Assembly: GCA_030024085.1 (NCBI GenBank)
Contig: JASEJE010000015.1
Location: forward strand, 14,375 to 78,374
From: Bacillota bacterium
GTDB taxonomy: Bacteria > Bacillota > SHA-98 > UBA4971
DNA: 64,000 bases
Direction of reading: 5' to 3'
The translations under genes were made by a program, and so were the position numbers. This document shows positions 4,019-61,235 of this stretch, piece after piece (the stretch's first letter is position 1; each line of letters opens with the position of its first letter). The notes below the pieces were generated by a model, which was not told the origin of the DNA, did not search any database, and saw nothing but the letters and a program-made list of their open reading frames with translations.

Positions 4019-4293
4019 AATGACGTCACGAAAACCCGGGATCCGCCCGCTTGTTGTATGATTCTACTCCGGGTATCATAATCCTTCCAGCCCGGCGCAA
4101 AACGCGGACGCCGGGCGCATTCGGTCCGCAACCCGGCTGCTGGTCCCCACCTCGATCGGTCCCTGGCTCACTTGAGTATGGCACGTCGCACACACAACAG
4201 CAAGCTGCGCCTCGCCCTCAGCGAAACGCAGCCTGTCTTCGGACGATTTGTCGGCCTCAAGCCCCCGCAGCCGTGCTCAGGTCGGGGTGCGAC

Positions 4294-4504
4294 CCTAAGT
4301 AGATCGCCACGAATTCGCGCTACTTTTCAGCGCGCAAGTCCTGTCCGGGGTTGCCGGTACTGCCCTCCGGGGACGGCGCGTGCGGTGAGATGCGTTCGAA
4401 TTCGGCGCTCAAGGCTAGCCAAATTCCAGGCGCCCCGCCCTAGCAAGCACCGGCAACCCCAACACCGTCAGGAGAAGGGCGCAAACTCATGGCGCCATAC
4501 TTAG
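4294..4504 (-). repeat. Copy 1 of a structured intergenic repeat family (MITE-like) with TIRs CTAAGTAGATCGCCAC / TGGCGCCATACTTAG
   Basis: Near-identical to the segments at 10840-10984, 12109-12320 and 16348-16533. Contains an internal 13-bp inverted repeat GGGGTTGCCGGTA...CACCGGCAACCCC and a hairpin GAATTCGGC-n-GCCAAATTC. Its terminal CTTAG provides the TAA stop of ORF 4501..5019. Confidence 0.8.
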
Positions 4505-5019
4505 AAGTTCATCCCCACCAGCACGCGGAAAGAGCTTCCGCCATCTCCCGCGCTGCTGTAAAGCCCTTCGCCTGCGAGCCAGAACGGCGACATGATGTTG
4601 GCCTTGACGCCGCCGAGCAGTTCGAACCAGGAGTCGCTGCCGCTCATGAGAGCCACTCCGCCTCTGCCGTACACGTCGATCTGCGGGCTGACCGGCTGCT
4701 GACCGTACACGCCAATCTTGAAGATGTTGGCGTTGTATCCCTCGACCAGCTTCACTCCGCCGAACGCCCCCACTGAGGCGGCGCCGAAGCTCTGGAGAGC
4801 GAGTTTACCATACAGCTCGGTCTCGCTCGCGTTCTCGTGGCCGACGTAGTCGAACCCGAAAGCCACTTTATCAGAAAGGCTGAGTTCTCCGGTCAGCGTG
4901 AGGTGCGACTGATTCTCGTGGAAGTAGTACCCCACACCGATCTTGTTCTCTGCGGATGCGACCCCCGCCACTGCCAGCATCATAACGACGGCGACGGCCA
5001 GGCAAATTGCCTTCTTCAT
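4501..5019 (-). CDS. small secreted beta-barrel outer-membrane-like protein (signal peptide, C-terminal Phe)
   Basis: RBS AAGGAGGG 7 nt before the ATG. Signal peptide MKKAICLAVAVVMMLAVAGVASA. Gly/aromatic-rich alternating pattern. Ends ...VLVGMNF, an OMP-type C-terminal Phe. Confidence 0.5.
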   Translation of the reverse strand: MKKAICLAVAVVMMLAVAGVASAENKIGVGYYFHENQSHLTLTGELSLSDKVAFGFDYVGHENASETELYGKLALQSFGAASVGAFGGVKLVEGYNANIFKIGVYGQQPVSPQIDVYGRGGVALMSGSDSWFELLGGVKANIMSPFWLAGEGLYSSAGDGGSSFRVLVGMNF

Positions 5020-9391: not shown

Positions 9392-10812
9392 GTGTACCTC
9401 TTGACCTGGAACCTGAAGAGCTCCACGTCCTCCTCCGGCGCTATACCGGCCTTGCGCTTTGCAATGGCCACCTGCTCGCGGGCGTCGTCGATCCCCTCGA
9501 GGTCCGGCAGCAGCAGGCCGCTCCTGGCGCCCCTCTTGACGATGACTCCATATACCTTCGGGTCCAGCTCAGCGATGCTGGAGATCTGCTCCGCCGGAGT
9601 CAGCACGTCAACAGAATACGTAAGGTCCTCGAGTTCATCGGGCTCCACAGGCACGAACCTGGGATCTTCGGTGGCGGCCGCGATGGCGTTCCTGATTATC
9701 TCCTCGGCGATGCTGTCTCGCGTGGGGTGAATCGTTCCAATGCATCCCCGGAGCTGCCCGGCTTTCTTGATGGAACAGAAGACCCCCGCACGCCCCCTCA
9801 TCTCTTCCGGCTGGTCCTCCGGGGGATCCACCACGCGACCGTTCCTCGTGTATTCCTCGACCGCCCTGCGCGCGAGACGCACAAGGGCGCTTTCCCCCTC
9901 TCTCGTCTTCAGCATCGCCTTCCGGCGCCTCGCAACCAGTCTCTCCAGGATGGCCCTCTCGCCCGCCCTCTCCCCGGGGCGGAACACCGCGACGGCGTAA
10001 CCCACGCCGAAGGGCCCCTCGTATGAGAGCACCTCGGGCTCGAACCTGCGCCCATCGAGGGTCCCGAGGGCCATGATGAGCGACCTGTATCCGCACTCGC
10101 CCGCGTGTTCCACCAGGCCGTTATCGAGCGCGAGGATCCCCTCCACGTCGCCCGCCCGCACCAGCTCGACTATCCGCGCGTCGAACTCGGCGCCGCGCGG
10201 GTCGTAACCGGACGGCGCGCCGCGAGTGAGCCGGTGCGACATGTCGCCGCTGGCGACGACGACAGCCCTCCGCCCCAGCGTCTCCACAGCCCTCGCTATC
10301 GCCGTGCCGAACATGTACAGCTTCTCGCGGGACAGGAACGCCATCCCCATGACGACCACAGGGACCGTGATCCCCGCCCCGACAACGAAGTGCATCGGGA
10401 CCAGGACCCCGTGGTCCAGTCGGCTGTCCACGTGATATGCACGCCGCTCGCGCTCATCGAGGAGGACCGCAGCCACGCCCATGGCGTCGGCCTGATGCGC
10501 GATCTCACGAGCGAGGGCAAGGTCGTTGTCGAATGAGTAGCCGACTTCGCCCGCCATGAAAAGGGAGAAATCGCCTGAAAGGGGATCGTCAGTGTGGATG
10601 GCGACGGCATCCTCGAAAAGAGGCGCATGGGGGCTGATGACGACCACGACCTCAGGACGGGCGTCCTTCACCATGGCCGCCAGCTTCTTCATGGCATCGG
10701 TCGTCTTGCGCACGGCGCCCAGGTCATGCCCGGCGCCGATCTCCGGGATGAGAAGCGGTGGGTGCGGCGCGAGGGCGCATAGCACCACGTCTCCGCTGCC
10801 TACCTTGCTCAT
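9388..10812 (-). CDS. AmmeMemoRadiSam system fusion protein: N-terminal MEMO1/LigB-like (AmrB) domain plus C-terminal AMMECR1 (AmrA) domain
   Basis: 474 aa. N-terminal dioxygenase-class-III/Memo-like region. C-terminal AMMECR1 motif GVFCSIKKAGQLRGCIG. RBS GGGGAGGGGG. Confidence 0.75.
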   Translation of the reverse strand: MSKVGSGDVVLCALAPHPPLLIPEIGAGHDLGAVRKTTDAMKKLAAMVKDARPEVVVVISPHAPLFEDAVAIHTDDPLSGDFSLFMAGEVGYSFDNDLALAREIAHQADAMGVAAVLLDERERRAYHVDSRLDHGVLVPMHFVVGAGITVPVVVMGMAFLSREKLYMFGTAIARAVETLGRRAVVVASGDMSHRLTRGAPSGYDPRGAEFDARIVELVRAGDVEGILALDNGLVEHAGECGYRSLIMALGTLDGRRFEPEVLSYEGPFGVGYAVAVFRPGERAGERAILERLVARRRKAMLKTREGESALVRLARRAVEEYTRNGRVVDPPEDQPEEMRGRAGVFCSIKKAGQLRGCIGTIHPTRDSIAEEIIRNAIAAATEDPRFVPVEPDELEDLTYSVDVLTPAEQISSIAELDPKVYGVIVKRGARSGLLLPDLEGIDDAREQVAIAKRKAGIAPEEDVELFRFQVKRYT

Positions 10813-10839
10813 GAGAATCCCCCTCCCCGGGCGCAGGCC

Positions 10840-10984
10840 CTAAGCAGATCGCCACAAATCCGCGCTACTTTTCAGCGCGCGAGTCCTGTCCAGCCACCCA
10901 GATTCTCGACGCCCCGCTCTAGCAAGCACCGGCAACCCCAACACCGTCAGGAAAAGTGGCGCAAACTTATGGCGCTATACTTAG
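10840..10984 (-). repeat. Copy 2 of the intergenic repeat family (shorter, internal ~70-nt deletion)
   Basis: TIR-like ends CTAAGCAGATCGCCAC / TGGCGCTATACTTAG. Shares the GCGCTACTTTTCAGCGCGC hairpin and the ...GCAAGCACCGGCAACCCCAACACCGTCAGG... core. Its CTTAG end supplies the TAA stop of ORF 10981..12072. It ends ~30 nt before the amr start codon. Confidence 0.8.
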
Positions 10985-12072
10985 CGTCCGGTAACGACCT
11001 TGTGGACGTACGGCGACGTCATGGCGGCGAGGAGACACCCATAACTCATGGTGAACCTGACCTCGTCTCCCACCCGTATCTCGCGGTCAGCGTCCTCCAC
11101 ATCCAGGATCAGGTGGTCGCTGGACGCCCCAAGCACGTCGATGCCCGACTCGAGCGGCTTGAGGCCCTCCGGGTCGATGTCCTGCCTTCCGCAAGCCAGG
11201 ATGGCCCTCCACCTGATGCCCTTGTCTCTGAACGTGCGCACCTTGCCGAAGGCGTCCTGCCCGATCTCTCCCCGCGGCACCGAAGGCTTCCTCGCCACTT
11301 CGATGGCCTGGGCCGCAAACACGAACGCGTCGAGATGCATGCCGGGAAGAGGCCGTCGGTACGTGACGTCACGGCCCAGGAGCATGGACTCGCCGATACG
11401 AAGCTGGTTTATGCCATGCGGCACCTCGCCGGCCCGGACGAGCGGAATAGAGCTGGAATTGCCGCCTGATATCACCTCGAGGTCAATTCCGAGGTCTCTT
11501 CGGATCCGATCCCGCAAGTGCAAGAGCACGCTCATGTTCTCGTGCGTCGGGATCACCCCGCCATAGCATGCTACGTTTGTCCCGATGCCATGCAGCCTGA
11601 TGCCCTCGACGCGCGCCAGGCGGCCCGCTACATCGGGGGCCGCATCGACCGGCACGCCCTCGCGGAGATCCCCCACGTCCACCATGAGGATGACCCTGTG
11701 CTGGACCCCCCGGGCACGCGCCGCCTCGCCAAGGGCTCTTGCAGTCTCCACCGACGAGATGAGGCTCATGTCGGCCACTCTCACGGCCTCGTCGGCCTCG
11801 CCAAGCATGGGGGCGCGCAAGAGAAGGGTCTCGCAGGAGATGCCGGCCTTACGCATGCGAGCCAGGTTCGCAAGGCGCGAGTCGGCAATCCACCTGACGC
11901 CGCCCCTCAGCATGGCTCTTGCCACCTCGGGGTCGCCGCAGGTCACCTTGGTGACCCCCGCCACCTCGGTGCCGCTCCTCCTGCACATCTCCACGACGAC
12001 CCTGGCGTTCTCCTCGATCTTGTCGAGAGATACCTCCACCCTGGGCGCTACCATGGAAGCTGGGACTGCCAC
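10981..12072 (-). CDS. alanine/ornithine racemase family PLP-dependent enzyme (fold type III)
   Basis: 363 aa with alanine-racemase N-terminal barrel features and a C-terminal beta domain. PLP-Lys context VAGVTKVTCGDP. Confidence 0.65.
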   Translation of the reverse strand: MAVPASMVAPRVEVSLDKIEENARVVVEMCRRSGTEVAGVTKVTCGDPEVARAMLRGGVRWIADSRLANLARMRKAGISCETLLLRAPMLGEADEAVRVADMSLISSVETARALGEAARARGVQHRVILMVDVGDLREGVPVDAAPDVAGRLARVEGIRLHGIGTNVACYGGVIPTHENMSVLLHLRDRIRRDLGIDLEVISGGNSSSIPLVRAGEVPHGINQLRIGESMLLGRDVTYRRPLPGMHLDAFVFAAQAIEVARKPSVPRGEIGQDAFGKVRTFRDKGIRWRAILACGRQDIDPEGLKPLESGIDVLGASSDHLILDVEDADREIRVGDEVRFTMSYGCLLAAMTSPYVHKVVTGR

Positions 12073-12108
12073 GTTCGCATCACCCTCGCCGTCCGGCCCC
12101 TCGCCCGT

Positions 12109-12320
12109 CTAAGTAGATCACCACAGATTCGCGCTATCTTTCAGCGCGCGGGTCCTCTTCAGGGTTGCCGGTGTTGCACGCCGGGGACGGCGCGCTTGCG
12201 GAGCGCCTCGTTAGAATTTGGCGCTTAAGGCTAGCCAAATTCTTGACGCCCCGTCGTGCAGGCACCGGCAACCCCAACACCGCCAGAAAAAGTGTCGCAA
12301 ATTCATGGCGCCATGCTTAG
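12109..12320 (-). repeat. Copy 3 of the intergenic repeat family (full length)
   Basis: CTAAGTAGATCACCAC ... TGGCGCCATGCTTAG. Internal IR GGGTTGCCGGTG / CACCGGCAACCCC. Hairpin GAATTTGGC-GCTTAAGGCTA-GCCAAATTC. Confidence 0.8.
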
Positions 12321-13336: not shown

Positions 13337-14716
13337 CTACTTTGCGAACCTCACCAGGTCGAAGTTGGGCTCAAGGGGCTCATCGAGGATGACGTGCCCC
13401 GCGATGGTCACGGCCGAGGCGCCTTCCACGAGGATCTGGACGCGCTCCACCTCGGGCAGCTCAGCCAGGGTGTTGACTATCGAGTAGACTGTGATCTCCT
13501 CGGCCCTGCTCCCTCCCCAGTGGCTCGACGCAAGCTCCCGGCTGAAATCCACGTAGGCCACTCCGTCTGCGATGCGAAGCGCCCTCAGCCGCGTTCCCTT
13601 CGGGATCGTGGGACACAGCACACTCCCGCCTGCGGGCCCCTTGAGAAGCTCGGCAACGATCTTCGAGGCCCGCTCCTCGGGCGAGGCGGCCTCCGCTATG
13701 CCCGCAGTCTTGCGTATCTCGGGCAGGAGGTCGTCGTCGAAGTTGGTGGGGCCGGCGAAGTAGAGTATGACCTCGTCATCGGCCGGGTTGAGGGCTGCGC
13801 GCACCTTCGACCTCAGCACTGATTCAGCCCCGTCATGGGGTGGCCCCTCGGTCCGCAAGTCTGACACGGGCTCCGCCCCCGCCCGCTGTCCCTCGGCGCC
13901 CCTGCGCCGCTTGTATGACTCCACGAGGTAGTTCACGGTGCCATGGAAGATCGCCTCGGCCACCCGCCTCCGATAGTCAGGCTGGGCAAGAAGCGACTCC
14001 TCTCGCGGGTTTGAAAGGAAACCCGCCTCCACGATGACTGCAGGCATCTTCGATTTCCTGAGCACGAAGTAGTCGTCGCCCGGCTTGGCCTTCCGCAGGT
14101 TCGGACCGAGGCGGGCCACGAGCTCCTTCTGGATGGCCTGCGCAAGGGCCTTGCTCTCCTCGGACTTGCTGTGATAGAACGTCTGCGCCCCCGACCAGAC
14201 AGGCTCGGGGAAGCTATTCGCGTGGACGCTGATGTAAAGGTCGGCCCCGCTCCGGGCGCCAAGGTCCACCCTGCTCTCCAGGTCCAGGCGCTTGCGCTGC
14301 ATGGGGCCGAGGGATCCGTCCCCGGCCAGGTCCTCGTCCTCGTCCCTTGTCATGACGGTGTACACCGCTACGCGGTTGAACAGGCCTGCAAGGTGGCGTC
14401 CGATGTCCAGCACCACATCTTTCTCGGCAAGCCCCGAGCGGCCGCGCGCTCCGCAATCGTCCCCGCCATGCCCCGGGTCTATGACTATGACCTTCCCGCA
14501 TACGGCGTCTGAAAGCGGGGCGCTCACCCTCACAGCGGCGCGGGCAAGCACGAGCAACATGACCACCACCGCCCCTATAGCAGCGGTGGTCACCAGCCAC
14601 GCTCTGGGCGTCCAGACAACCACCACGGGCCGTTTCAACAGGGCTTCACCCTCTGTGACGAGCATCCCGGCGCATGGCGCGCCGTCGCCCGCTGCCCGGC
14701 ACCCTGCACCCAACAC
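13337..14716 (-). CDS. N-acetylmuramoyl-L-alanine amidase (Amidase_3) with N-terminal TM anchor and C-terminal GerMN domains; true start probably internal (~14665)
   Basis: KVIVIDPGHGGDDCGARG...ISVHANS Amidase_3 motifs. C-terminal GerMN-like region. Confidence 0.7.
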   Translation of the reverse strand: MLGAGCRAAGDGAPCAGMLVTEGEALLKRPVVVVWTPRAWLVTTAAIGAVVVMLLVLARAAVRVSAPLSDAVCGKVIVIDPGHGGDDCGARGRSGLAEKDVVLDIGRHLAGLFNRVAVYTVMTRDEDEDLAGDGSLGPMQRKRLDLESRVDLGARSGADLYISVHANSFPEPVWSGAQTFYHSKSEESKALAQAIQKELVARLGPNLRKAKPGDDYFVLRKSKMPAVIVEAGFLSNPREESLLAQPDYRRRVAEAIFHGTVNYLVESYKRRRGAEGQRAGAEPVSDLRTEGPPHDGAESVLRSKVRAALNPADDEVILYFAGPTNFDDDLLPEIRKTAGIAEAASPEERASKIVAELLKGPAGGSVLCPTIPKGTRLRALRIADGVAYVDFSRELASSHWGGSRAEEITVYSIVNTLAELPEVERVQILVEGASAVTIAGHVILDEPLEPNFDLVRFAK

Positions 14717-16347: not shown

Positions 16348-16533
16348 GGAACAGAGATCACCGCCGCTTTTCCAGGGGTTGCAGGTGTTGCACTCCGGGG
16401 ACGGCGCGTGCGGTGAGCCTCGTTCGAATTTGGCGCTTAAGGCTAGCCAAATTCCAGGCGCCCCGCCCTAGCAAGCACCGGCAACCCCAGCACCGTCAGG
16501 GAAGATGGCGCAAACTTATGGCGCCATACCTAG
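16348..16533 (-). repeat. Copy 4 of the intergenic repeat family (5' TIR degenerate)
   Basis: Shares GGGGTTGCAGGTGTTGCAC...GAATTTGGCGCTTAAGGCTAGCCAAATTC...CACCGGCAACCCCAGCACCGTCAGG...TGGCGCCATACCTAG with copies 1 and 3. The left end (AGAGATCACCGCCGCTTTTCCAG) is degenerate. Confidence 0.7.
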
Positions 16534-38989: not shown

Positions 38990-39177
38990 GTTTAGCATAC
39001 CTCCCAGTCATCGCCTGATCACGTTAGCAGACATACTCCGCCGGAATTCCCCTGCCACGCAGGCAACCTCCGGCATCATCGCTGCGAGAGGCAGGCCGGA
39101 CGCGGCCCGCCGGACACCCTGGCCGGCCTGGCCTGCCCCGCTTCTCCGCATCCCGGGCGGCCTGCCCGCTAAATGCA

Positions 39178-47883: not shown

Positions 47884-47907
47884 CGGCCTCTCCTCCTCTC
47901 CCTCACG

Positions 47908-50900
47908 CTATGCGCGCTCGCCGTCATCGTCGCCGGCGTCGTCCTCGTCCTCATCGTCGAAAACGCCCCCCAGGTCGTCTTCCTTGCCTTCGCCTTCCTC
48001 TTCGTCTTCGTCTTCGTCTTCGTCTTCGTCTTCGTCTTCGCCCTCGTCTTCGTTCTCGTCTGCGTAGTAGGCATCGTCTTCCTCGTCTGCTTCGAGCTCG
48101 TCCTCGTACCCGGGTTCGCCTTCGACTTCCGTGTCATCCTCGGCGGCCTCATCGGACACCTCGACCCCCGCGGCAACCCCGGTCGCAGCCGCACCTACAT
48201 CGTCTTCCTCCTCCACGCCTTCCTCATCTTCTCCGGACATCGGTGCCTCGTGAATGGTCATGCCGAGCGCCTCGCCGTCTTCTCCGGCCTCAAGGCCCAC
48301 CTCGTCTCCGTCTTCGTCCATGTCTTCGTCTTCATCTTCTGGAAACCTGGACTCCGCCCGGCGCGGGACGAAGAGGCGTTCCTCAGGGAGCAGTTCGTCG
48401 GTCTCCCTGCCTTCGATGTCGATGCCAAGGTCCCTGGCGGTGTCGGCGATGTCATCGTCGGACTCGCCGATCTCGATCTCGCGTTCGTCCTCGCTCAGCA
48501 CCTTGACATCCAGCGCCAGGCTCTGAAGCTCTTTTATGAGAACCTTGAACGACTCGGGCACGCCGGGCTCGGGCACGTTCTCGCCCTTCACCACGGCCTC
48601 ATACGTTTTCACGCGGCCCACCACGTCGTCGGATTTCACTGTAAGGAGTTCCTGGAGAGTGAAAGCCGCGCCATATGCCTCGAGAGCCCATACCTCCATC
48701 TCTCCAAACCTCTGGCCGCCGAACTGGGCCTTGCCCCCCAGCGGCTGCTGGGTCACGAGGGAGTACGGACCCGTGGATCGAGCGTGGATCTTGTCGTCCA
48801 CGAGGTGGAGCAGTTTCATCAGGTAAGCGTAGCCCACGGTTATCGGGTTGTCGAACGGCTCGCCGGTGCGGCCGTCATACAGAACCGTCTTCCCGTTGGC
48901 CGGCAACCCCGCGTCTTCTAGAGCTTCGAGGATCTCGTTCTCCGTGGCTCCGTCGAATACTGCGCTCGCCACCGGGGTGTCCATGACCTTCGCAACCCAC
49001 CCGAGGTGTGTTTCCAGCACCTGTCCGAGGTTCATTCGAGACGGCACCCCGAGTGGGTTCAGCACCACTTCTATGGGTGTTCCGTCCGGCATGAACGGCA
49101 TATCCTCTTCAGGCAGGATCCTGGCTATGACACCCTTGTTGCCATGACGCCCGGCCATCTTGTCGCCCTCGGAGACCTTACGTTTCTGGGCGATGTATAC
49201 GCGAACGAGGCGGTTCACGCCCGGGCCCAGCTCATCGCCGGCTTCCCGCGAGAACACGTACACCGCCACCACCTTGCCGGACTCCCCGTGAGGCACCCGC
49301 AGAGAGGTATCCCTCACCTCGCGCGCCTTCTCGCCGAAGATGGCGCGAAGCAGGCGCTCCTCCGCGGTGAGTTCCGTTTCACCCTTCGGCGTGACCTTGC
49401 CCACGAGGATGTCTCCGGGGCGCACGTAAGCCCCTGCGCGGATGATGCCCCGCTCGTCGAGGTCCTTGAGGGCCTCCTCGCCCACGTTGGGAATGTCCCT
49501 CGTGATCTCCTCGGAGCCCAGCTTGGTGTCGCGCGCCTCGCACTCGTACTCCTCTATATGAATGGACGTGAAGGTGTCCTCCTTCACCAGCTTCTCGCTT
49601 ATGAGGATGGCGTCCTCGTAGTTGTAACCCTCCCAGGGCAGGAACGCCACGAGCACGTTCCGGCCAAGGGCCATCTCTCCGTTATCGGTCGAAGGGCCGT
49701 CCGCGATGACGTCTCCCCGTTCCACCCGTTCCCCCTTCCGGACGATGGGCTTCTGGTTTATGCACGTCCCCTGGTTCGACCTCATGAACTTGAGAAGCTT
49801 GTATGTGTCAGTGCCACCGGTGTCGGTCTCGATGACGATCTCGTCCGAGGACGCGCTCACCACCTGGCCGCTGTTCCGGGCAAGCACCACAGCGCCGGAG
49901 TCGACAGCGGCCTTGTACTCCATGCCCGTGCCGACGAGCGGAGCCTCACTGCGAACGAGCGGGACGGCCTGGCGCTGCATGTTCGACCCCATGAGCGCGC
50001 GGCCTGCGTCGTCGTTCTCGAGGAACGGGATGAGCGCAGTCGCGATACTCACGATCTGCTTGGGCGACACGTCCATGAAGTCGACCTGATCTCCGGGGAC
50101 CTCCATGATCTGGTCCTTGTAACGGGCAGCGACCTTGGGGTTGGCGAACGATCCGTCCGCGTTGATGGGTTCGTTCGCCTGGGCTATGACGTACTTGTCT
50201 TCCTCGTCGGCCGTGAGGTAGAGGATCTCCTCTGTGACCTTCCCATCGACGACCCTCCGGTAAGGCGTCTCGATGAAGCCGTACTCGTTTATCCGCGCGT
50301 ACGTACACAGCGCGCCGATGAGCCCGATGTTGGGACCTTCAGGCGTCTCCACGGGACACATACGCCCGTAATGCGAGTGGTGGACGTCGCGCACTTCAAA
50401 CCCTGCCCTCTCCCGGCTGAGGCCTCCAGGGCCCAGCGCCGAGAGGCGTCTCTTGTGCGTCAGCTCCGCGAGGGGGTTGGTCTGGTCCATGAACTGCGAG
50501 AGCTGGCTCGACCCGAAGAACTCCTTGATGGCCGCCACCACAGGCCTGATATTGATGAGCGTCTGGGGGGTGACCACGTCCACGTCCTGGATGGTCATCC
50601 TCTCCCTGACCACGCGCTCCATACGGGAAAGGCCTATCCTGAACTGGTTCTGCAGTAGTTCCCCCACGGACTTCAGGCGCCTGTTGCCCAGGTGGTCTAT
50701 GTCATCGGTGCCGCCGACGCCCCGTATCAGGCCGAGCTGGTAGTTGACGGCTGCGATGATGTCCTCACGCGTTATGGTTTTCAGGTCGGGCGACGGGAAG
50801 CCGTTGTCGACGACCTTGACCGGGTTGCCGTCGGGGTCGGCCACCACGGCTGTGAGGACCGTACCTCTCCCCGGTCCCCCGGCCGCCTGCTGAAGGGCCA

Positions 50901-56793: not shown

Positions 56794-56869
56794 TGGAGCC
56801 CACGGCCGGAATCGAACCGGCGACCCCATCCTTACCATGGATGTGCTCTGCCTGCTGAGCTACATGGGC
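56794..56869 (-). tRNA. tRNA-Thr (anticodon GGU), CCA encoded
   Basis: Manual cloverleaf: acceptor GCCCATG/CGTGGGC. Anticodon stem CATCC/GGATG. Loop AUGGUAA. T-arm GCCGG-TTCGATT-CCGGC. Confidence 0.85.
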
Positions 56870-56883
56870 TCCTAAACATGACC

Positions 56884-56960
56884 TGGAGCGGGAAACGGGA
56901 CTCGAACCCGCGACATTCAGCTTGGAAGGCTGACGCTCTAGCCAACTGAGCTATTCCCGC
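56884..56960 (-). tRNA. tRNA-Gly (anticodon UCC), CCA encoded
   Basis: Acceptor GCGGGAA/TTCCCGC. D-arm GCTC-AGTTGGCTA-GAGC. Anticodon stem TCAGC/GCTGA. Loop CUUCCAA. Confidence 0.85.
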
Positions 56961-56975
56961 TCGACGTAAAATGCC

Positions 56976-57061
56976 TGGTGGAGAGGGGTGGATTCGAACC
57001 ACCGAAGGCTGAGCCAACAGATTTACAGTCTGCCCCCTTTGACCAGCTCGGGAACCTCTCC
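56976..57061 (-). tRNA. tRNA-Tyr (anticodon GUA), class II long variable arm, CCA encoded
   Basis: Acceptor GGAGAGG/CCTCTCC. Anticodon stem GCAGA/TCTGT. Loop CUGUAAA. Variable arm TGGCTCAGCCTTCGG. Confidence 0.85.
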
Positions 57062-61160: not shown

Positions 61161-61235
61161 TGGAGCCGACGGTGGGACTCGAACCCACAACCTGCGGATT
61201 ACAAATCAGCTGCTCTACCGTTGAGCTACGTCGGC
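61161..61235 (-). tRNA. tRNA-Thr (anticodon UGU), CCA encoded; one U-C mismatch in the anticodon stem
   Basis: Acceptor GCCGACG/CGTCGGC. D-arm GCTC-AACGGTA-GAGC. Anticodon loop UUUGUAA. T-arm GTGGG-TTCGAGT-CCCAC. Stem GCTGA/TCCGC has a mismatch at position 29:41. Confidence 0.7.

Follow-up and report, generated by a model that had tools for sequence, protein, structure and literature searches.

A repeat at the ends of two genes

How two genes on one contig come to end within copies of the same repeat is the question raised by a stretch of DNA from a Bacillota bacterium (the window: 64,000 nt, positions 14,375 to 78,374 of contig JASEJE010000015.1, assembly GCA_030024085.1). Positions 4498-4504 of the window read TACTTAG on the plus strand and CTAAGTA on the minus strand. 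A beta-barrel-like ORF (172 aa, 4501-5019, minus strand) has the 3′ end AAC TTC TAA GTA TGG CGC CAT, and an Ala_racemase_N/D-ser_dehydrat ORF (10981-12054/12072, minus strand, protein end ...VVTGR*) closes in the same manner, with GGA CGC TAA GTA TAG CGC CAT at 10978-10984. The TAA stops of both the beta-barrel gene and the racemase-family gene sit within the terminus of a repeat of ~210 nt; on recheck, the minus-strand sequence of both gene ends is as an earlier note on this DNA had given it.

The repeat is present in the window in four copies, with plus-strand coordinates 4295-4504, 10840-10984, 12109-12320 and ~16349-16533, and its 34-nt core has no match in shuffled sequence. Copy 1 lies between the beta-barrel stop and that gene's own terminator-like hairpin, and copy 2 follows the racemase stop and precedes the RBS/ATG of the LigB-AMMECR1 gene. 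Copies 3 and 4 are intergenic, 49 nt past the stop of a SIS-domain gene and 24 nt past that of an enoyl-CoA hydratase gene, respectively, copy 4 being upstream of nadE; these distances are counted from the terminal G of the copy to the stop of the upstream gene and differ trivially from the 47 and 22 nt given earlier. The answer developed here, which is very probably correct, is that the repeat is a TA-duplicating MITE that inserts at CTAG, served in trans by a DDE mobiliser (most likely of the IS630/Tc1-mariner type), and that its purine-first ends keep the stop of the gene that is hit.

Empty and filled target sites

Syntenic loci in relatives were reached via racemase homologs. One of them, L060, has ~95% nucleotide identity to the window and 97% identity in the racemase protein. 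Copy 1 is absent from L060, where the empty site reads AAC TTC TAG GGTCGCAGCCC, as against AAC TTC TA[AGTATGG...ATCTACT]TAG GGTCGCACCCC at the filled site of the window. Written with the duplicated target set apart, this junction pair (J1) is AACTTC-TA-GGGTCGCA in L060 vs AACTTC-TA-[AGTATGG...ATCTACT]-TA-GGGTCGCA in the window. The loci L062, L063 and L065 likewise read AAC TTC TAG GG at the copy 1 site. The C at this site is the third base of a Phe codon, the TA is duplicated, and only A4501 of the TAA comes from the element. The native stop of the beta-barrel gene is TAG, at the same codon.

The earlier note had assigned the TAA, and the whole of CTAAGTA, to the element. Only the A (4501, and 10981 at the racemase gene) belongs there, the C being a base of a sense codon and the TA the duplicated target. 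Its proposal that the insertion either abuts or replaced the native stop holds for the first part, as the empty sites show; the stop was not replaced but split, into TA+A at one end and TA+G at the other. Of the two targets that it had considered, the empty-site orthologs bear out TA, whereas a 3-bp TAA is excluded by a duplication of 2 bp. The comparison with insertion-free orthologs that it had suggested gives an ancestral TAG at the same codon together with this 2-bp TA duplication. The view that the beta-barrel C-terminus is native was sound: four relatives, the orthologs in L060, L062, L063 and L065, have the same ending (...MNF), reached via TTC TAG. The features delimited in this way are as follows.

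4504-5019, minus strand: gene for the beta-barrel-like protein, 172 aa, with signal peptide and the end ...VGMNF; C-terminus unaltered by the insertion
4501-4503, minus strand: TAA stop of the beta-barrel gene; T4503 and A4502 from the host, A4501 the first element base
4502-4503: proximal TA target-site duplication of copy 1, identical with bases 1-2 of the beta-barrel stop codon (minus strand)
4298-4501: MITE copy 1, element proper, 204 nt, full length; imperfect inverted termini AGTAGATCGCCAC... and ...ATGGCGCCATACT
4296-4297: distal TA target-site duplication of copy 1; it re-forms ...TAG GGTCGCA together with C4295 and the adjoining GG (minus strand)
4201-4235, minus strand: terminator-like hairpin of the beta-barrel gene, now ~210 nt 3′ of the stop; conserved in L060 directly after the stop
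10981-10983, minus strand: TAA stop of the racemase-family gene; two host bases and the first element base (10981)
10843-10981: MITE copy 2, element proper, reduced to 139 nt by the loss of ~65 nt of its interior; TA at 10841-10842 and 10982-10983, flanked by C10840 and G10984
12112-12317: MITE copy 3, element proper; TA at 12110-12111 and 12318-12319, flanked by C12109 and G12320
16349-16530: MITE copy 4, left end degenerate and interior partly deleted; right end ...CATAC, then TA (16531-16532) and G16533

The displacement of the terminator-like hairpin by ~210 nt is a consequence of the insertion of copy 1.

Two further sites carry the same signature. Copy 3 is absent from L060, which has GAC-CAAG-ACGGGC where the window has GAC-CTA[...]TAG-ACGGGC (J3); the empty site in this relative is thus CAAG, one substitution from CTAG. 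When window and L060 are compared by megablast, the two alignment segments that meet at copy 1 share exactly 2 nt of L060, as do those that meet at copy 3. At the site of copy 4 (J4), L062 has AAAC-TA-GTCGTGATCC and L063 has AAAC-TA-[AGTGTGG...CATACT]-TA-GTCGTGATCC; with the TAG shown whole, the pair is AAAC-TAG-TCGTGATCC vs AAAC-TA[AGTGTGG...CATACT]TAG-TCGTGATCC. Over 21 kb, L062 and L063 have 99.9% identity once a single 212-nt difference, at the copy 4 site, is set aside. Since they differ by one copy despite this identity, the element must have been mobile recently. The TA target-site duplication is accordingly seen, empty vs filled, at three loci, a 2-bp duplication being formally equivalent to the duplication-free insertion of an A...T-ended element between T and A. 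The empty sites are CTAG in several relatives, and CTAT and CAAG each in single relatives.

Copy 2 is shared with L060, including its internal deletion, at 83% identity vs 96.5% for the adjacent coding sequence, and is therefore regarded as old and drifting. As a close empty-site ortholog is lacking for copy 2, its pre-insertion sequence, CGC TAG, is a reconstruction; reconstructed CGC TAG GGCCTG aligns with the contiguous intergenic CGC-AGGGCG of L064. The racemase stop is found at the same codon position in L061 and two codons earlier in relatives at 80-87% identity, and the 'TGR' tail of the protein is encoded by the host, not by the element. In L060 the stop of the racemase ortholog has drifted to TGA: where L060:11089-11236 is set against window 10840-10984, both TA duplications of copy 2 appear as TG in L060 (CTGAG..., ...CCTGG). 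The differences between the two versions of this old copy are mostly AT-to-GC transitions, which suggests that DNA free of constraint drifts strongly towards GC here, the stop being kept as TGA.

Proposed mechanism and probable mobiliser

An ordinary transposition pathway accounts for these sites. The MITE, mobilised in trans by a DDE enzyme that is most likely of the IS630/Tc1-mariner type, integrates into the central TA of the palindrome 5′-CTAG-3′ with duplication of the TA. Where the C of CTAG closes the final sense codon and the other three bases are a TAG stop, the stop is split after TA. The purine-first end of the element then re-completes the codon as TAA or TAG, leaving the protein unaltered, and at the far end the duplicated TA and the original G re-form TAG. 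Because CTAG is palindromic and both termini are purine-first, either orientation keeps the stop (NNC-TAG becoming NNC-TA+A/G). Insertions within coding sequence would be lost by selection; it is to selection rather than to site choice that we would attribute the removal of intragenic copies.

Neither ~310 kb of family DNA nor the surroundings of truncated copies nor one metagenome scan yielded an autonomous partner whose inverted repeats match. A search with the inverted-repeat termini, allowing up to 3 mismatches, matched only MITE copies, and the truncated copies are bordered by ORFs of ordinary genes. When inverted repeats were sought at spacings of 600-3000 bp, only pairs of MITEs came up, including one of a second family (see below) that flanks dapB in L041. 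The metagenome scan, which looked for right termini lacking the MITE interior behind them, gave one 50-nt mini-derivative and nothing else. Because this partner was not found, we infer the family of the transposase solely from the target and the duplication. IS630 makes a 2-bp duplication at the target CTAG according to Table 1 of PMC2577343 (which cites Tenzen and Ohtsubo 1991), and the duplication of TA by IS630-family insertions is a hallmark of the IS630/Tc1-mariner superfamily (PMC2170065). With IS630 of Shigella sonnei and other IS630-Tc1-mariner elements such as ISY100, the present element has in common the insertion at TA, the 2-bp TA duplication and the terminal inverted repeats. It shares with IS630 itself the preference for TA within 5′-CTAG-3′; in contrast to IS630, it is non-autonomous (~204 bp, without transposase). 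A place among IS630-derived MITEs is thus suggested by the target signature alone.

The mobiliser might instead belong to the IS5 family (IS427/ISL2-type or PIF/Harbinger-like) rather than to IS630/Tc1-mariner, the events at the target being otherwise the same; this is conceivable, though rather unlikely. IS1301, a member of the IS427 group of the IS5 family, duplicates TA within AYTAG, which is why the family has to be considered. IS5-family elements also favour YTAR/CTAG, and IS5 of E. coli resembles the present element in its preferred tetranucleotide YTAR, mostly CTAG (PMC5493358). However, IS5 duplicates all 4 bp of its target (PMC5493358), whereas here the duplication is 2 bp and the arrangement is C-TA-[...]-TA-G, not CTAG-[...]-CTAG; a 3-bp TNA duplication is excluded as well. 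IS630 is on record as pairing exactly this target, CTAG, with a duplication of TA (PMC2577343), and an IS630/Tc1-mariner-type enzyme remains the preferred candidate.

Several known small elements resemble the repeat in part. RUP, a MITE of S. pneumoniae mobilised by IS630-Spn1 (PMC2229807), is likewise a short non-coding inverted-repeat element of a member of the Bacillota; it targets TA and has numerous copies scattered over intergenic DNA. It differs in its length of 107 bp, its low-GC host, its known partner IS and its preferential insertion into IS elements, whereas the niche of the present element is CTAG, including the C+TAG stops of housekeeping genes. The Correia/NEMIS elements of Neisseria are TA-flanked MITEs with a long-hairpin transcript and are often co-transcribed with their neighbours (PMC2229807). 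Their sequence and host are unrelated, however, and Correia elements have promoters, IHF sites and RNase III sites. In Coxiella burnetii, the MITE QMITE2 has also inserted right where a coding sequence ends, that of enhC (PMC5896051). In that case the protein is lengthened by 33 residues, whereas here the purine-first terminus restores a stop at the same codon.

Anatomy of the element

The element proper measures 204-206 nt, with deleted forms of 139-185 nt, and is too short to encode a transposase. Its true boundary lies 3 nt inside the apparent repeat. The terminal inverted repeats, of ~21 bp, are imperfect: in the consensus of 62 ends, AGTAGATCGCCACAAGTTCGC and AGTATGGCGCCATAAGTTTGC are identical at 16/21 positions. 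The tabulation of flanking bases for these 62 ends, another check that the earlier note had in mind, brings out the TA preference: the three successive flanking bases are C in 60/62, T in 49/62 and A in 50/62, and every departure is a transition. The first base of the element is always a purine (A in 51 ends, G in 11). No direct repeat beyond C-TA...TA-G is visible in the tabulated copies. The short length, the terminal inverted repeats, the duplication seen between empty and filled sites and the dispersed copies with presence/absence polymorphism identify the repeat as a MITE, a non-autonomous transposon with terminal inverted repeats. It constitutes a new family of a well-known kind, in poorly studied hosts, GC-rich sporulating Bacillota.

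As RNA, the element folds into a rod-like hairpin of -103 kcal/mol (z = -4.8). An alignment of 20 copies has 61 consensus pairs with a covariation term of only -0.67 and very few compensatory changes; a stable fold with almost no covariation is consistent with a palindromic mobile element. A search of Rfam 15 gave nothing at gathering score and only sub-threshold chance matches at E<1, and plasmid records hold no similarity to the element. No promoter-like site occurs at 4100-4700, and both terminator-like sites of this interval (4199-4235) are outside the element.

The stability of the fold might suggest that the repeat is primarily under selection as an RNA or regulatory element with a function of its own (3′-UTR stabiliser, terminator or intercistronic processing site, for example), to which it would owe its position at gene ends. 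The same could be said of the arrangement in the window, where 4/4 copies follow genes and would be part of their transcripts, copy 1 between stop and terminator. Yet this explanation is very unlikely, given the lack of an Rfam match, of an internal terminator-like or promoter-like site and of appreciable covariation. Moreover, presence or absence of a copy differs between genomes that are 99.9% identical, the copy shared with L060 evolves faster than the flanking coding sequence, and both orientations relative to the gene occur.

Copies in related genomes

A scan of a genome collection with a 21-nt core gave many matches in the Bacillota MAGs MAG107 (JBLNDE01), UBA6811 (DKEX01) and MAG-64 (JACIXY01), and loci of those three MAGs hold at least 35 copies; 0/59 of the genome-scan loci are orthologous to the window. 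At least 13 of the ~35 copies in related MAGs close a real gene with the terminal stop, via either end of the element, and 15 of ~39 copies supply a stop. Ten of the 13 gene-closing copies were confirmed by Pfam and three were assigned on codon-position GC alone. The Pfam-confirmed genes encode RecA, EF-P, GroEL, an M42 peptidase, MutS2/Smr, NamZ, AlaRS, a GFO/IDH/MocA oxidoreductase, DUF1256 and MoeA; in RecA, EF-P, MoeA, NamZ, Smr/MutS2 and AlaRS, among others, the Pfam domain extends to the C-terminal end. Long ORFs that close on element termini, for example those at 11585-12112 and 10556-10843 of the window (both plus strand), are antisense shadows (GC1 < GC2) and were excluded.

Relatives of the element were also noticed. 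L041:1026-1125 and L041:2132-2256 represent the second MITE family, which is related to the first; its termini are perfect (CTAAGTGAGGGTGC...GCACCCTCACTTAG) and its internal GGGTTGCCGGTG/CACCGGCAACCC hairpin is the same. The pair flanks a dapB-like gene in inverted orientation, a composite-like arrangement, and the copy at L041:2132-2256 also gives a TAA stop to a 303-aa gene (...SDIEIH*). The 50-nt mini-derivative mentioned above (L066:882-931, metagenome contig Ga0067045_1073108) joins a family-A terminus to a family-B-like terminus (CCTCACTTAG), and here too a gene next to it (294 aa, ...DELQCS*) has its TAA stop formed by the element. L028:5841-6040 is a chimera of similar make-up. A diverged relative of the element, with ~69% identity to copy 3, lies after rpsI and before the next gene in L062:4233-4409 and L063:4023-4199, starting with ...ttctag|CTAAGTACGCCA.

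CTAG supply and the share of stop codons

The tetranucleotide CTAG is scarce in this DNA: the window has 32 sites vs 216 expected from base composition, a ~7-fold (6.7-fold) depletion. Of these 32 sites, 7 are inside or at MITE copies, so that the element itself brings in new CTAG targets. The native CTAG sites in 311 kb of family DNA are distributed as follows.

Coding sequence: 90
Intergenic: 48
Stop codons: 21

The expected share of stops among non-coding CTAG is 0.30-0.33, an approximate figure in that the gene calls come from a crude caller based on codon-position GC, and one that assumes purging of intragenic insertions. The observed share is 15/39 (38%; binomial p = 0.3-0.5), and the two match. 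The stop-codon capture mechanism advanced in the earlier note is thus unneeded, since the observed share fits CTAG availability: target specificity and purifying selection suffice. Many copies are found at stops because CTAG is scarce, because C+TAG makes up about a third of non-coding CTAG and because intragenic insertions are selected out.

That the transposition machinery actively recognises stop sites (gene ends or terminators) beyond CTAG is highly improbable. The 38% of copies that lie exactly on stops, those of housekeeping genes included, are slightly above expectation, but CTAG availability alone accounts for them within the probability given above; both element orientations are used and stop-unrelated intergenic CTAG sites are hit too. 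Still less credible, and refuted by the empty sites of L060, L062 and L065, is a terminus CTAAGTA that replaced or captured the native stop (through a TAA target or stop capture) and supplied the whole of the new one, a notion that arises because C-TA-A stands at both ends of all copies and the window alone makes CTA look repeat-derived, but that founders on empty sites already holding C, TA and G, on a duplication of only 2 bp and on the location of copies 3 and 4 and of most of the relatives' copies at intergenic CTAG.

A repeat that puzzlingly 'supplies' stops is thereby explained by a simple rule, TA duplication in CTAG together with a purine-first terminus. No new mechanism is revealed; retention of the stop is an ordinary result of a known target choice. 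Where CTAG is rare in a genome, stops account for about a third of the usable targets, and essential genes can bear a transposon on their stop undamaged. Annotators of uncultured GC-rich Bacillota gain a defined repeat family with exact boundaries. A further idea, speculative and on balance unlikely, is that the purine-first termini are an adaptation of the element that makes C+TAG stops harmless landing sites, and that some of the hairpins have been co-opted for mRNA stability or processing. If this were true, the family would systematically turn TAG stops into TAA and would plant a stable hairpin of ~200 nt in the 3′ UTR or intercistronic spacer of recA, efp, groEL and alaS.

Further observations on the window and its relatives

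Exact-protein look-ups for the racemase and beta-barrel proteins encoded in the window gave no matches, and the 172-aa beta-barrel-like protein (4504-5019, minus strand) has no Pfam match. The latter has an alternating beta-strand-like sequence and a C-terminal Phe, and the protein is conserved across all relatives. The window genome also has sporulation genes (Amidase_3 and Germane at 13340-14716), and the combination of these genes with a beta-barrel-like protein bearing a signal peptide hints at a diderm spore-former. The protein source names attached to GCA_050260545.1 (L060) and GCA_050260395.1 (L065) are 'Bacteroidota bacterium' and 'Betaproteobacteria bacterium', respectively; L060 and L065 are probably mislabelled bins, as their gene content and synteny match Bacillota MAGs.

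Elsewhere in the window, 47895-48339 is a long run with an imperfect 12-nt period (plus-strand GTCTTC repeats), whose minus strand probably codes for an acidic stretch rich in Asp/Glu. An S10 ribosomal-protein leader and four tRNA genes were found at 39011-39087, 56797-57061 and 61164-61235 (all minus strand). The leader is of the Clostridia type, with a score just above the gathering score, and together with the tRNA genes it is consistent with a ribosomal-protein region of the Bacillota.
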